A stretch of DNA of 45,847 nt from a virus, in the UHGV virus genome UHGV-0097969; one strand, 5' to 3'. A program made the translations under genes and the position numbers. Positions within the stretch are counted from its first letter, which is position 1. The number at the start of each line of letters is the position of its first letter. Shown here piece after piece: positions 26,029 through 45,847 of the stretch. The notes under the pieces are model-generated. The model was given only the letters and a program-made list of their open reading frames with translations. It did no database searches and was not told the origin of the DNA.

Positions 26029-26104
26029 TGGTGGCCCCTACCGGATTTGAACCGATGACCGTGCGATTATGAGTCGCCTGCTCTAACCACTGAGCTAAGG
26101 GGCC
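26029..26104 (-). tRNA. tRNA with CAU anticodon (Ile2 or Met), CCA encoded
   Basis: Reverse complement GGCCCCTTAGCTCAGTGGTTAGAGCAGGCGACTCATAATCGCACGGTCATCGGTTCAAATCCGGTAGGGGCCACCA folds as a cloverleaf (7-bp acceptor, GCTC/GAGC D stem, TTCAAAT T loop); first half resembles ileX-type as recalled. Confidence 0.85.
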
Positions 26105-36795: not shown

Positions 36796-36819
36796 TAAAA
36801 AAGGCCCCCGAAGGGGCCT
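36796..36819 (-). terminator. intrinsic terminator between convergent units
   Basis: AGGCCCC-cgaa-GGGGCCT stem with T-run on the minus strand. Confidence 0.5.
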
Positions 36820-36824
36820 AATCG

Positions 36825-36947
36825 CTACTTGCTGCTAATGTTTATCGTCACATTCAGAGCGTTATCAGTAATCTTCCAACCCTCCCCATGTGGCGTAAAC
36901 AAAGCTCCAGTAACAACGATAAAAATACACATGTAGTATTTTTTCAT
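36825..36947 (-). CDS. small hydrophobic peptide (40 aa), putative
   Basis: MKKYYMCIFIVVTGALFTPHG...; AAGGG SD; terminator directly after the stop. Confidence 0.3.
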   Translation of the reverse strand: MKKYYMCIFIVVTGALFTPHGEGWKITDNALNVTINISSK

Positions 36948-37261
36948 TGTGTGGCCCTTACAGGCCGTTTCACGGCATCCCCACCGACGAAAATGACGCG
37001 AGAGCAAGCACGCTGTTTGTGCCTGCGTGGTACGGCAAGTGGATAATCCTTTCCTGAAAGTCAGTGCCCGGGTGCGAATCGGCGGAAAGGCCCCAAGCCA
37101 TATTACACGTCATACCCTTCATAATGAAGGAATAAAAAACGCTTTTATTACATAAGATTACACGTAAATAAGTTAAAAACCTTCATTTTGCATGAGCTAA
37201 TGAGCTAAATTTTTTTATATGAATAGTGGACTATTCACCTCAGTTGGGTAAGAATGTAGTT

Positions 37262-38094: not shown

Positions 38095-38203
38095 TTGACA
38101 TGAATGCGCCATTGGTGGACACTTTCCGAGCCGTAGCAAAATCTACGGTCGGGATTGGAACCCCGTAGACACAATGGCGCATACCGCGTTAGCGGTTTTT
38201 TTA
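38095..38203 (+). promoter_or_regulatory. promoter plus structured leader with intrinsic terminator (attenuator or small RNA) ahead of the antirepressor operon
   Basis: TTGACA at 38095-38100; hairpin CCGTAG-caaaat-CTACGG; long-range GCGCCATTG...CAATGGCGC; terminator ACCGC-gtta-GCGGT plus T7 at 38183-38202. Confidence 0.35.
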
Positions 38204-38368
38204 TGCGTAAAGCACTGCTACACCCAAATTATGGTGGGGCGTGCGGGGGAGTCGTAAGACTCGCCGGTTCGTCATTGTGTCCGGTAGTTCCAACCCAGCA
38301 CGTCTCACCACCCAATGATTGGAACCTGACGGTGGTGAGTATCCTTAACCTTTAAGGGAATCATCACA

Positions 38369-41923: not shown

Positions 41924-42223
41924 TCAGATGTTAAACGCTATTCGTTTTCCTGTGGGAAGCTCAACATCCAGGCTTAATTTGCCTCCCATAGCTTCAACGT
42001 AACGCTTTAATGTCGCCAGCTTTAAATCATTTCCGCGCTGCTCCAGCTTTGTTACTGCTGGCTGGCTTATACCCATCGCCTCAGCAACCTGTTTTTGTGA
42101 TAACTGGAGTTCTTCACGCATCATCTGCAAGCCGACCTCAAGAATCATCTCATCTGCCATTTCTTTAATTCGCGCCTGGCTTTCCGGTGAACGGCTGGCA
42201 ATCGCCTCATCTAATGTTCTCAT
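41924..42223 (-). CDS. higA: HTH antitoxin, HigA-like
   Basis: 99 aa, XRE-type HTH ...LSQKQVAEAMGISQPAVTKLEQ...; start overlaps toxin stop (ATGA). Confidence 0.65.
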   Translation of the reverse strand: MRTLDEAIASRSPESQARIKEMADEMILEVGLQMMREELQLSQKQVAEAMGISQPAVTKLEQRGNDLKLATLKRYVEAMGGKLSLDVELPTGKRIAFNI

Positions 42224-42576
42224 TACTTGCTCTCCAGTGTGTTCAGATGTGCTGCAAACTCATCCTCAGCTATACGCACCAGTTTTTCATAAAACCGCTT
42301 ATCGTTACTTTTGTCTCCTGCACAAAGAACGATGGCCCGGCGAATCGGATCGAACGCATAAAAGGCTCTTATCGGACGGCCAAAAAACTGAACGCGAAGC
42401 TCTTTCATATTTTTGTACCGAGAACCTTTTACGGTATCGGCATATGGCCTAGGTAACTCAGGTCCGTAAACCTGTAGCTTTTTCAAATCAGCCAAAACCT
42501 TTTCCTGAAGAGCGTCTTCTTGCTCATTTAGCCAGTCGTCAAATCGCTGGCTAAAAAGTACCGTCCACATGCTCAA
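42223..42576 (-). CDS. higB: RelE/HigB-like toxin (Gp49-like)
   Basis: ...RVQFFGRPIRAFYAFDPIRRAIVLCAGDKSNDKRFYEKL... resembles the Gp49/HigB family; toxin-first order; track start is TTG, likely ATG at 42570. Confidence 0.65.
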   Translation of the reverse strand: MSMWTVLFSQRFDDWLNEQEDALQEKVLADLKKLQVYGPELPRPYADTVKGSRYKNMKELRVQFFGRPIRAFYAFDPIRRAIVLCAGDKSNDKRFYEKLVRIAEDEFAAHLNTLESK

Positions 42577-43401: not shown

Positions 43402-43636
43402 TTATTACATCTACGATGGTAGGAAATCTTTTCCTATGTGGCAATAGAAATTTACCACATTTCGTATAAGACAAGTTTTCTATACCTAATAGGAAATCAT
43501 GATTCTTACGTTTTATCGCGTTCTGATGGCTACTGTGTGCGTATTTATCGACGTTTATTGATAAGGCTCGCCCCTTCCTCCTGCAAAGCCTGGCCGTAGG
43601 CCTTATTTCGGCCTTATATAAATTGATTTTGTATAG

Positions 43637-43748
43637 TTCGAAACGCGCCGTTTCGAAAAGGATGATCAGGCTGCTCCATGCCTCCGGCAAGTGCCGGAGG
43701 AGGTATATTTGAGCGTAGCGACTCGAACCGGCGCGAGCTTTAGCTCGC
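43637..43748. repeat. cluster of three perfect palindromes in the AT-rich region downstream of repA (candidate origin)
   Basis: TTCGAAACG-cgc-CGTTTCGAA (43637-43657), CCTCCGGCA-ag-TGCCGGAGG (43681-43700), GCGAGCT-tt-AGCTCGC (43733-43748). Confidence 0.4.
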
Positions 43749-44032
43749 TGCAAGGGCGAACATATTCACAGGCAAAGCCTGCGTAAGTTAAATAAAGAAA
43801 GTCTTAATAAAAGAAAGTGATTTTGCATTTATTTGTTTAGTGCATCTATTATAAAAAACCATTTGCATATACATATCAAAACTGTGGACAACTTAATTAG
43901 CCGATGCCTGTAAAGGCGATATTTACGCTGTGTTCAGGTTTAGAGAAAATTAATTTAGCTTGTTTTTTGAACAGATATTTTATTGCGACGTAGATAATCC
44001 TCCGGTAAAACCGGATTCATCATTCAGGTGGG

Positions 44033-44881
44033 TTAATGTTGGAGTGATTTCCAGGTCTTTCTTAGCCTGTTATAACGCTGCTCAACGAGGGAGCGTAAAT
44101 ATGCAAGGTCAGCTCCAGGATACATGCCATCAGCAAATTCCTGGCTAACCTCTCTAGTGATTTGATGACGAAGTTCGGCCTCTCCCTTTTCCCGAACAAG
44201 ACGCGCAGCTCTCTCCGCTGCTTTCTGTTTTGCCTTTATCTCTCTGGCCGTCTTCCTCTGACGCCATACATTCTCCATCTGCTCCTGAATAACAATACGC
44301 TTATAATCAGCCTCCGTTATCGCTTTTTTAAGCCGTTCGCTATTCTTCGCATTGAAGTAATTAAGTTTCTGGCTAACCGCACGTCTCCATGCTTGTTCAG
44401 TAATACCAACGGTTTCCAGCAGTTGATCACGAATCTCTATTTTCGCTGGCCAATACTGTTTATTCACCCGATCCCAGCGACGTTCATAATCAATAAAACC
44501 TAACGCTTTCAGTTGCGACAACGCCCTTGTACAGCGCGTTATAGACTTGTTCCCAGCTTCGGATACGGTAGACAGGCCGCAAAAATCAGCCAACGCCTCA
44601 GCACTAGCCAGAACCCGCTTAGAAATGATGTTTACATGGTGCAAAATCGCAGCGATCACAGCATTAATCGCCCGACGACGATGCTCGTTTATCCGGCGCT
44701 TCCGCTCTGACGGTTGATTAACGTAGAACGCAACCTCACACGTAAGATCACGCCCATTAATGCGCTGTAAAGCATCAGATAACACCAGCGGCAGCTTGTG
44801 CGTATGGTGCTTTGGAGGCTGGAACTCCGGCGACAAATTACAAACGTAAGCTGAACGTAGAGACGGCATTGGTCTATCCAT
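44033..44881 (-). CDS. repA: replication initiator RepA, IncFII RepA1-like
   Basis: ...CGLSTVSEAGNKSITRCTRALSQLKALGFIDYERRWD... resembles R100/R1 RepA1; basic C-terminus; in-frame upstream ATG at 45013 would add 44 aa. Confidence 0.75.
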   Translation of the reverse strand: MDRPMPSLRSAYVCNLSPEFQPPKHHTHKLPLVLSDALQRINGRDLTCEVAFYVNQPSERKRRINEHRRRAINAVIAAILHHVNIISKRVLASAEALADFCGLSTVSEAGNKSITRCTRALSQLKALGFIDYERRWDRVNKQYWPAKIEIRDQLLETVGITEQAWRRAVSQKLNYFNAKNSERLKKAITEADYKRIVIQEQMENVWRQRKTAREIKAKQKAAERAARLVREKGEAELRHQITREVSQEFADGMYPGADLAYLRSLVEQRYNRLRKTWKSLQH

Positions 44882-44925
44882 ATGTTCGCTCTTGCGTCCA
44901 CGGAAAACCAACGTATAATGGGAGT

Positions 44926-45006
44926 TGTCGAGGCGCCCATGGATTGTTGTTGTTGGTTTTCCGTGGATGTCGCAAGAAGCCCGCAGATTTATCTGCGGGC
45001 TTTTTG
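44926..45006 (+). ncRNA. CopA-like antisense RNA in the repA leader
   Basis: Promoter TTGCGT-N16-TATAAT (44892-44919) and terminator GCCCGCAGA-ttta-TCTGCGGGC plus T5 (44979-45005), opposite to repA. Confidence 0.45.
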
Positions 45007-45194
45007 TTTCCATATCTGGTCACTTTCCAACCAGACACCCACAATCATAACCACGTTACGTGGTTTTAAGAGAACTCTACCACAACACTTTCGGTCATGC
45101 ACGAAGTCTCTCACTGATCGAACGATAATCCACCAGTAAAAGGATCTAAATTGGATCTCGTTTTGCGAGCATCATACTACTGGCCTAACTCCAG

Positions 45195-45749
45195 TCAATG
45201 ATTCCCAGCCGGAAACCTGCGGTAAAGCGTGGATAAGGTAACATCGAAGATAATCGCTATCTGCTTACGTGAAACACCATTCGCAATAAGCCTTCCGATC
45301 TGTTCCCATTGCTCTGGTGCCAATTTTGAGCGGCGTCCTCCTATCCTGCCGTTAGCCCTTGCCACCGCCAATCCTGCACGCGTTCTTTCAATCATATTTT
45401 CCCGCTCCATCTCTGCGACTGCACTCAGCATCGTGTAGGCAAAGCGGCCAATTGAAGTGCTAATTTTTATCCCTTCCGTAATCGAAATAAACTCAATGTT
45501 GTTTGATAAAAAATAATTAAGTAAATCAACAAGATGAATCAGAGAGCGCCCCATTCGGTCCAGCTTCCAGACAATAACCGTATCGCCCGGCCGTAACACC
45601 TTCAGTAGCTTATCAAGTCCTGGTCGTTTTGATTTAGCACCGGATATTTTATCTTCAAAAATCCGGTCACATCCTGAACTCCTGAGCGCCTCCAGTTGTA
45701 ATTCCAAATTCTGGTCAAAAGTTGACACCCTCGCATAACCATATTGCAT
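45195..45749 (-). CDS. site-specific DNA invertase, Gin/Pin/Cin/Hin family serine recombinase
   Basis: MQYGYARVSTFDQNLELQLEAL...VWKLDRMGRS... catalytic-Ser N-terminus and C-terminal HTH; 184 aa. Confidence 0.9.
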   Translation of the reverse strand: MQYGYARVSTFDQNLELQLEALRSSGCDRIFEDKISGAKSKRPGLDKLLKVLRPGDTVIVWKLDRMGRSLIHLVDLLNYFLSNNIEFISITEGIKISTSIGRFAYTMLSAVAEMERENMIERTRAGLAVARANGRIGGRRSKLAPEQWEQIGRLIANGVSRKQIAIIFDVTLSTLYRRFPAGNH

Positions 45750-45813
45750 ACTTTCTAAACCGCGATTGTTGCTAAAAGCGGGAAAAAATATCGTTCAGAC
45801 GACACAGAGGCAA

Positions 45814-45839
45814 TTCGCAAAAACCTCGGTTTGCAGGAA
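45814..45839. other. gix/cix-like invertase crossover site B
   Basis: Reverse complement TTCCTGCAAACC GA GGTTTTTGCGAA; inverted partner of site A; 65 bp upstream of the invertase start. Confidence 0.6.
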
Positions 45840-45847
45840 ACGGTAAA

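Follow-up and report, generated by a model that had tools for sequence, protein, structure and literature searches.

The control mechanisms of the I-complex, IncL/M and R1 plasmids have been summarised previously (PMC8053102, PMC10286972, PMC12365149). IncB and IncL/M plasmids combine an antisense RNA, RNAI, with a leader peptide and a pseudoknot (PMC8053102, PMC10286972, PMC12365149). In IncL/M, binding of RNAI to the leader inhibits translation of RepA, and RepA expression needs the pseudoknot (PMC12365149 and its reference 18); the leader peptide RepB is also needed, and a repressor, RepC, is present (PMC12365149). For ColIb-P9, Asano & Mizobuchi 1998, as cited in PMC8053102, describe pseudoknot formation and Inc RNA binding as competing at one site. 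The present work concerns the region upstream of repA in UHGV virus genome UHGV-0097969, the whole analysed stretch of which (45,847 nt) is referred to here as the window. We consider it fairly probable, from sequence comparison and structure modelling, that this region is the copy-number control element of a phage-plasmid replicon and works as a three-helix translational switch. Antisense copy control of an IncFII-superfamily replicon is of a known kind, in a form not previously described or modelled.

A predicted antisense RNA gene in the repA leader

Relatives of the locus were gathered from PLSDB, IMG/VR, metagenomes and Logan contigs. They include type A, made up of the E. coli form and three Salmonella/Klebsiella forms (RepA 81–85% identical), and type B, a second lineage in which RepA is ~60% identical. 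An earlier note, made from the window sequence alone, had proposed that a near-consensus promoter and a strong terminator on the plus strand define an antisense RNA of roughly 80 nt, and the predicted RNA is indeed of this length (Table 1), its 5' end being placed from the -10 hexamer and its 3' end from the U-run. The terminator is as strong as had been claimed, with a GC core (GCCCGCAGA/TCTGCGGGC) closed by a UUUA loop, and three of its stem pairs carry compensatory changes between lineages. The description of the promoter holds for the -10 hexamer, a perfect TATAAT, and fails for the -35 hexamer, which matches TTGACA at only three of six positions; for this reason the promoter was not listed by a consensus promoter scan, and the simple scan also missed the terminator. 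The promoter is invariant in all type A relatives and is replaced by TTGCAT-N18-TATAAT at the same position in type B. Its spacer holds the DNA of the 3' arm of an mRNA helix described below.

The predicted antisense RNA consists of a single-stranded 5' tail (UGUCGAGGC), a stem-loop (SL1) and the terminator, and it is fully complementary to the repA mRNA leader. When positions 44926–45008 were folded with RNAfold, SL1 and the terminator hairpin were obtained at -41.1 kcal/mol (z = -6.3), and none of 200 shuffled sequences was as stable. The same three-part fold is predicted in every type A and type B variant; in type B the 5' tail is identical, SL1 is of unrelated sequence and the terminator has three compensated pairs. 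A sense-strand motif, GCCTCGACAACTCC[C/G]ATTATA, is common to types A and B; it is complementary to the antisense -10 hexamer and 5' tail. Several SL1 pairs are G.U, and in each lineage this roughly doubles the stability of the antisense hairpin (-11 to -14 kcal/mol) relative to the sense complement (-4 to -8 kcal/mol); such a modelled asymmetry is the mark of selection acting on the antisense strand. A joint RNAalifold analysis of both lineages recovered the terminator only, since MAFFT cannot align unrelated stems, and the lineages were therefore analysed separately and compared by duplex energies.

Between the window and the Salmonella relatives, identity is 95–97% over the promoter and 5' tail, 96–98% over the SL1 3' stem and terminator, 35–65% over the SL1 loop and 40–74% over the rest of the leader and the start of repA, so that the antisense unit without its loop is 95–98% identical overall. 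The layout of promoter, tail, SL1 and terminator recurs in type B, with RepA 60% identical, despite different stem sequences. The promoter and terminator thus delimit a conserved unit, and the putative antisense RNA gene is well supported by these sequence comparisons. The copy-control arrangement suggested earlier is also present, in the sense that a conserved promoter, stem-loop and terminator lie antisense to the leader of an IncFII_repA-family repA.

Within the SL1 loop, the 3' half (GUUGGUUU) is invariant among E. coli-type variants and the 5' half (44944–44951) is hypervariable and belongs to a (TTG)4 run (44944–44955). Natural loop variants differ by -3, -1 or +2 nt, as well as by substitutions. 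Slippage at the (TTG)4 run may generate new antisense specificities.

A long-range helix in the repA mRNA

The inverted repeat pointed out in the earlier note is present as a perfect 16-nt repeat (44897–44912/44952–44967), within 3 nt of where it had been placed, and is lengthened by six further pairs (44891–44896/44973–44978) beyond a 3-nt bulge. In the repA mRNA it would form a long-range helix, H2. The 5' arm of H2 is the target of SL1, and the 3' arm, which ends 15 nt before the ATG at 44881 (M45, one of two candidate RepA starts; see below), has the same sequence as positions 44952–44967 of the antisense RNA. The 3' arm being identical to this antisense stretch, the repA mRNA carries a mimic of its own antisense RNA.

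The proposal that the repeat forms a helix in the repA mRNA is borne out by compensatory changes. Among type A sequences, 98.6% of alignment cells are paired in the tested structure, and double-sided changes are seen at three pairs, two in H2 and one in the terminator; at most two of 500 shuffles attain the type A values for pairing and double-sided changes. When the H2 partner is slid by 1–3 columns, pairing falls to 31–43%. One-sided changes in the tested H2 pairs give U.G wobbles, which are paired in the sense RNA and not in the opposite strand. Across lineages the H2 arms are unrelated in sequence, and each lineage's own arms form duplexes of -19.6 to -37.6 kcal/mol (z -3.4 to -10.3), whereas mixed duplexes, with their two arms taken from different lineages, reach only -7 to -16 kcal/mol. 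This comparative evidence makes the repeat a conserved helix that joins distant parts of the predicted repA mRNA.

A predicted alternative hairpin on the start region and a proposed switch

The 3' arm of H2 doubles as the 5' strand of an alternative hairpin, H3. When the target was blocked in a fold of the 364-nt leader of the window, the 3' arm shifted onto the start region, and the probability that the AUG at 44869–44867 (M49, the second candidate start) is unpaired fell from 0.91 to 0.02–0.07. All variants are predicted to form an H3-equivalent hairpin. The start-region strand is not the same in the three type A lineages, where G.U/G-C and U-A/U.G exchanges and a single change from U-A to A-U keep the H3 pairing intact, as read by eye. 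In the type B equivalent, CCUGGCU pairs with an AGG(CC)AGG Shine-Dalgarno region.

These features suggest the following mechanism. A constitutive promoter within the repA leader would give rise to an antisense RNA of ~80 nt, made up of a 5' tail, SL1 as the recognition stem-loop and a terminator, whose target in the repA mRNA would be the 5' arm of H2 (44967–44952). Without antisense RNA, the 5' arm would pair with the 3' arm (44912–44897), transcribed ~55 nt later, and H2 (16–23 bp) would hold the 3' arm off the translation start region so that RepA is made (ON). If the antisense RNA takes the 5' arm first, the freed 3' arm would fold onto the start region as H3, burying both candidate AUGs and blocking RepA translation (OFF). 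The antisense RNA and the mRNA's own 3' arm would thus compete for one site, as in ColIb-P9, with a long helix in place of a pseudoknot and no conserved leader peptide involved. The hypervariable half of the loop lies outside the constraint of H2 and could give rise to new incompatibility types. Since the 5' arm is made first, the 3' arm ~55 nt later and the start region last, the decision could be taken during transcription, in which case no ribosome would be needed to open H3. Sequence elements, conservation, covariation of the terminator, SL1 and H2, strand asymmetry and the lack of a conserved leader open reading frame (ORF) were all computed directly; from them we infer antisense transcription, negative regulation, the role of H3, the assignment of ON and OFF states and the co-transcriptional timing. 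The more specific proposal, that control is free of a leader peptide and set during transcription, that the internal 16-nt antisense copy toggles between ON and OFF, and that this arrangement has replaced the pseudoknot-plus-peptide design and allows many incompatibility types, is offered tentatively and at somewhat less than even confidence.

Several points weigh against the proposed switch. The support is comparative or thermodynamic throughout, and the antisense promoter has a weak -35 hexamer (3/6). Shuffling gives H3 moderate support (z -1.3 to -3.7) and type B offers no clean compensatory H3 pair; with statistics of this order, H3 is a structure that we infer. In the free fold the 6-bp extension of H2 covers the AAG of the AAGAG located 5' of M45 (probability unpaired 0.05), which is awkward for H2 as the ON state if M45 is the start. 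Shine-Dalgarno pairing is weak (~-3 kcal/mol) at all candidate starts and does not separate M45 from M49, and in the Salmonella relatives the ATG beside AAGAG is out of frame with RepA. Recombination could be partly behind the near-identical control block found in diverged replicons.

If the switch operates as proposed, the long helix would be an evolved replacement for the pseudoknot and leader peptide kept in a relative whose RepA is 63% identical. The element is the likely copy-number and incompatibility determinant of the phage-plasmid. Rfam has no family for this RNA element.

Alternative explanations

A classical arrangement of the CopA/tap or RNAI/RepB kind would have the antisense RNA block translation of a leader ORF whose termination, close to the start of repA, is coupled to RepA translation. 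Suitable ORFs can be found in several sequences: a +1-frame ORF in the window (45044→44874) has its UAG stop (44876–44874) overlapping codons 2–3 after M45 (AUGGAUAG) and 4 nt before M49; an ORF of the type A relative L025 ends in AUGA on the RepA start; type B repA is joined by ATGA to an upstream ORF of 158–162 aa, itself preceded at 11–13 nt by the end of a mini-ORF of 7–13 codons; and a canonical leader ORF of 15 codons, with GUGA at its end, is present in the L006 relative. However, none of these is conserved in start, frame and stop. The +1-frame ORF of the window has GUG/UUG starts only, no leader ORF ending near the repA start was found in L039 (a -1 nt loop variant), L003 or L004, and the loop indels of L041, L048 and L012 (-1 or +2 nt) would likewise shift the +1 frame. 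The ORF beginning at ATG 45013 shares the RepA frame, is not a separate ORF, and is broken in four of eight variants. There is also no Shine-Dalgarno sequence where I-complex repB has AAGGA, the window reading CUCCC at that point. We regard such coupling as unlikely in the window. It is quite unlikely, too, that a real antisense RNA acts instead through duplex-triggered RNase III cleavage and mRNA decay, with H2 doing no more than limiting the time for which the target is accessible and H3 uninvolved. RNase III cleaves the CopA-CopT duplex of R1, and a decay mechanism would fit the good support for the antisense gene and H2 as against the moderate support for H3. The antisense duplex would also end 45 nt upstream of M45, which excludes direct occlusion of the ribosome and calls for an indirect effect. 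Yet three type A lineages that differ in their start-region sequence all keep the 3' arm complementary to it, and in type B the arm pairs with a Shine-Dalgarno-like AGG; were H3 irrelevant, this complementarity would be an unexplained coincidence.

The region might contain no regulatory antisense RNA at all, the hairpin at 44972–45007 serving as a bidirectional terminator or insulator between the invertase and repA genes and the repeat being a DNA-level protein-binding site or a leftover duplication. The poor -35 hexamer, the absence of both promoter and terminator from the consensus scans and the fact that the hairpin also forms in the sense transcript would agree with this. On the minus strand, however, the hairpin is followed by CUUCUUGCG and not by a U-run, the unit is kept in relatives whose upstream neighbour is not an invertase, TATAAT and the tail are invariant across lineages, and the helices hold strand-specific G.U pairs, which point to selection on RNA and not on DNA; this explanation is very unlikely. 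Countertranscript-driven transcription attenuation of the pT181/pIP501 type, in which antisense binding would allow the repA mRNA to fold into a terminator while it is being made, shares the design of mutually exclusive helices and might be thought to gain from Rfam matches on the plus strand to the Thr, Leu and Trp attenuator leaders. These matches are on the plus strand and below their gathering scores, and were rejected as reflecting the shape of a hairpin followed by a terminator. The repA strand has no U-run after H3 or after any other helix downstream of the target, and attenuation is accordingly the reading to which we give the least credence, bordering on the negligible.

RepA and its leader

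Coordinates of the features of the control region are collected in Table 1.

Table 1. Features of the repA control region, in window coordinates
Feature	Position	Strand	Details
Candidate repA promoter	45171–45198	-	TTGACT-N16-TATGAT; 10/12 match; leader ~280 nt
Leader hairpin SL0	45012–45038	-	GUGUCUGGUUG-GAAAG-UGACCAGAUAU; directly 5' of target; 3' base holds ATG 45013
Structured 5' leader	44882–45013	-	44 in-frame codons before M45; not conserved as coding sequence
H2 5' arm, target of antisense SL1	44952–44978	-	core UCCACGGAAAACCAAC (44967→44952) plus extension CUUGCG (44978→44973)
H2 3' arm	44891–44912	-	core GUUGGUUUUCCGUGGA (44912→44897) plus extension CGCAAG (44896→44891)
H3 3' strand	44867–44882	-	UAUGGAUAGACCAAUG; holds both candidate RepA ATGs; pairs with 44913–44899
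repA	44033–44881	-	most likely 282 aa (M45) or 278 aa (M49)
Antisense promoter	44892–44919	+	-35 TTGCGT 44892–44897, 16-nt spacer, -10 TATAAT 44914–44919
Predicted antisense RNA, ~80–84 nt	~44926 to 45006–45009	+	5' end placed from -10, 3' end from U-run
SL1	44932–44971	+	interrupted 11-bp stem, three G.U pairs, 16-nt loop UUGUUGUUGUUGGUUU (44944–44959)
Rho-independent terminator	44972–45009	+	16-bp hairpin 44972–45007, then UUUUUGUUU

The longest ORF on the minus strand (45013→44033, 326 aa) matches Pfam IncFII_repA (E 1e-43), with the profile beginning at residue 53, and NCBIfam RepA_IncFII_LM at 232 bits. It scores 79 bits against the incFII_RepA equivalog TIGR03474, well below the cut-off of 447. 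A PLSDB tblastn search (E ≤ 1e-10) gave 242 records that match RepA, and classical IncFII plasmids were not among them; the nearest matches outside the group are from Buchnera (47%) and then from pKPC_UVA01-like plasmids (37%). PGAP/RefSeq place the RepA start at 45013, in a database cluster of 525 sequences. The annotated start is probably 44–48 codons too far upstream, because RepA homologues outside the E. coli form are 274–283 aa long and the extension is frame-broken in natural variants. The earlier note had allowed that homology might place RepA initiation at 45013 with no leader; despite the PGAP annotation, the homologue lengths oppose this. Correction would apply to a database RepA now carried as 326 aa. 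M45 (ATG 44881–44879) corresponds in position to the MENH/MDNH start of the ORF controlled in type B, and M49 (ATG 44869) aligns with the homologue N termini. Shine-Dalgarno energies, all ~-3 kcal/mol, do not discriminate between M1, M45 and M49.

The ATGs at 45013 and 44881 are in frame, 44 codons apart with no stop between, and to this extent the open 44-codon stretch reported earlier is real. Its suggested role as a tap-like leader peptide did not survive comparison. It lies in the RepA frame, and this frame is lost through -1 or +2 nt indels of the loop in four of eight E. coli-type variants, whose RepA stays 99–100% identical. In the Salmonella relatives the 45013 ATG is missing and the loop carries 2- or 7-nt indels, with an in-frame stop in one of them. 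A census of upstream ORFs near the main start gave lineage-specific candidates only: no leader ORF was conserved in start, frame and stop across the checked lineages, and in L039, L003 and L004 none ending near the repA start was found. Together with the broken 44-codon frame, this leaves the tap-like reading unsupported.

Folding predicts SL0 for the window, for the Salmonella relatives and L025 among type A, and for two of the three type B sequences folded (L016 and L007); its sequence is 44% identical between the window and Salmonella. The candidate repA promoter of the Salmonella relatives has an identical -35 hexamer and TATCAT at -10. Three GATC sites (45116–45119, 45143–45146 and 45154–45157) fall within ~50 nt of the predicted start of the repA transcript, and the two nearest the promoter are conserved in the Salmonella relatives, so that Dam/SeqA may be involved. 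Downstream, an AT-rich stretch (43780–43990, with 24% GC at 43800–43899) lies 130–250 bp past the repA stop and contains a DnaA-box-like TTGTCCACA at 43883–43891 on the minus strand; the count of DnaA boxes is not above chance. The origin is probably located downstream of repA (AT-rich 43800–43900), where an IncFII-type origin would be expected. The repA gene is flanked by an 18-nt direct repeat, GATAATCC(T/A)CC(G/A)GTAAAA, with copies at 43993–44010 (just past the stop) and 45124–45141 (in the leader). It was dropped as a RepA-binding site since it is absent from the Salmonella relatives.

Genomic setting

The element is a circular, non-mobilizable E. coli plasmid of ~48 kb, nearly all of which is covered by the window; plasmid pHN68-3 (NZ_CP141847) is 100% identical to it over 43800–45200. 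PLSDB holds 62 related records (58 Escherichia, three Salmonella and one Klebsiella), and the same region is found at 98–99.4% identity in the Yersinia phages vB_YpM_39, 41 and 44, which are virion isolates. Isolation as infectious Yersinia phages identifies the element as a phage-plasmid. Of 5,426 complete E. coli genomes, 71 carry it, among them ATCC 25922 (plasmid NZ_CP009073), and it is plasmid-borne every time. An exact-pattern scan of the genome contig collection gave no matches, and a RepA-profile scan of the same collection returned one Buchnera plasmid and nothing useful. The Buchnera-like metagenome loci L053 and L054 were excluded from the comparison as too AT-rich, and pSLy3 was rejected as an instance of this phage-plasmid because it belongs to an SSU5-like group. 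A literature search found no study of this replicon.

The flanking phage genes encode a tail fibre, a tail-fibre assembly protein and baseplate proteins, together with a Hin/Pin-type invertase. The invertase (45195–45749, minus strand) is a serine DNA invertase (Resolvase and HTH_7) that adjoins oppositely oriented tail-fibre and tail-fibre-assembly genes, an arrangement that suggests a host-range switch; in L001 this neighbourhood also continues past the window end. In some relatives (CP088608) an acetyltransferase takes the place of the invertase. Genes for a RelE/ParE-family toxin and an HTH antitoxin lie near the replicon (41924–42576, minus strand), and a tRNA-Met (CAU) gene is found amid phage genes at 26029–26104 (minus strand). 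Rfam matches above gathering score were obtained for isrK (38130–38202, plus strand), C4 antisense RNA (38227–38315, plus strand) and ryfA (36797–37095, minus strand). C4 antisense RNA is part of the immunity region of P1/P7, and its match suggests that another part of the phage-plasmid encodes a P1/P7-like system of antisense immunity.

Comparison with known replication control systems

The earlier note had called the antisense RNA CopA-like. As a statement of family membership this fails: Rfam CopA gave no hit at E ≤ 10 over 43500–45847, nor over 44850–45060 with laxer filters, nucleotide similarity to IncFII is absent, and RepA is below the equivalog cut-off. Alignment to the classical IncFII leader regions, which the note had proposed as a check, showed no similarity by blastn against PLSDB; a search with 44850–45200 (word size 11) against 72,556 plasmids returned 62 records, all from this phage-plasmid group. 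The I-complex models PK-repZ (RF01087) and PK-repBA (RF01089) had no match at E ≤ 10 over 44850–45060 with permissive filters. In L006, whose RepA is 63% identical, the control region (2369–2489) scores 49.3 bits with PK-repBA against a gathering score of 45, and its antisense strand scores 34 bits with the CopA model, which can therefore reach into this RepA subfamily. L006 has a single-hairpin antisense RNA with promoter TTGAAA-N16-TATAAT, and also a UUGGCGG loop; CCGCCA lies 5' of its Shine-Dalgarno sequence, and a leader ORF of 15 codons stops with GUGA on the RepA start (alignment read by eye). Since L006 passes PK-repBA, this RepA subfamily uses an antisense RNA competing with long-range mRNA pairing, and closely related initiators, those of the window and L006, carry different control modules.

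A further module is seen in type B, in which the antisense unit would control the ORF of 158–162 aa (MENHTP.../MDNHTP...; L007:2016–2504, L009:2028–2504, L010:1236–1712). The encoded protein is similar to the N-terminal half of RepA, matching NCBIfam RepA_IncFII_LM at E 1e-10 to 1e-12, and the ORF runs over the start of the full repA by ATGA; in L008 (about 2300–2510) only a 64-codon remnant is left. It looks like a truncated RepA paralogue acting as a coupled "leader" gene.

The window resembles the IncFII plasmids R1/R100 (CopA, RF00042) in having an antisense RNA of ~80–90 nt against the repA leader that ends well upstream of the repA start, so that inhibition would be indirect in both, and in having an origin probably downstream of repA. 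Unlike R1/R100, it has no conserved tap-like ORF and no CopB-like repressor gene between the upstream gene and repA, and its H2 helix has no counterpart in the R1 model. With IncL/M (pMU604/pOXA-48; RepC, RNAI, RepB and RepA) it shares membership of its RepA in RepA_IncFII_LM, but a RepB-type peptide and a RepC-type repressor are neither present nor conserved in the window. As in pT181/pIP501, the antisense RNA would choose between two exclusive mRNA helices during transcription; those systems act by transcription termination, whereas no terminator follows on the repA strand of the window and the outcome would be sequestration of the start codons.

The I-complex (ColIb-P9 Inc RNA/repY/repZ; IncB pMU720 RNAI/repB/repA), whose initiator belongs to the same Pfam superfamily, offers several parallels. 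Both have an antisense RNA of ~70–80 nt from a promoter inside the leader, complementary RNAs that differ in structure, and a segment 5' of the initiator start region that is complementary to the antisense target, so that mRNA self-pairing and antisense binding would compete for one site. The I-complex pseudoknot is 6–8 bp; the self-pairing of the window is a helix of 16–23 bp that must unfold the target hairpin. The window also lacks a conserved leader peptide, and at the position of repB it has neither a Shine-Dalgarno sequence (AAGGA in I-complex repB, CUCCC in the window) nor an AUG. Its antisense RNA has a separate terminator hairpin, unlike the single stem-loop of the I-complex. By analogy, the window element would work like an I-complex switch, yet it stands outside the curated families. 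It is new in form in its long self-mimic helix, the lack of a conserved leader peptide and the hypervariable loop half. The relatives form a natural series, from a short pseudoknot with a leader peptide (L006), through a long helix with a coupled 160-aa ORF (type B), to a long helix directly on repA (the window), along which ideas on how antisense control circuits evolved can be tested.

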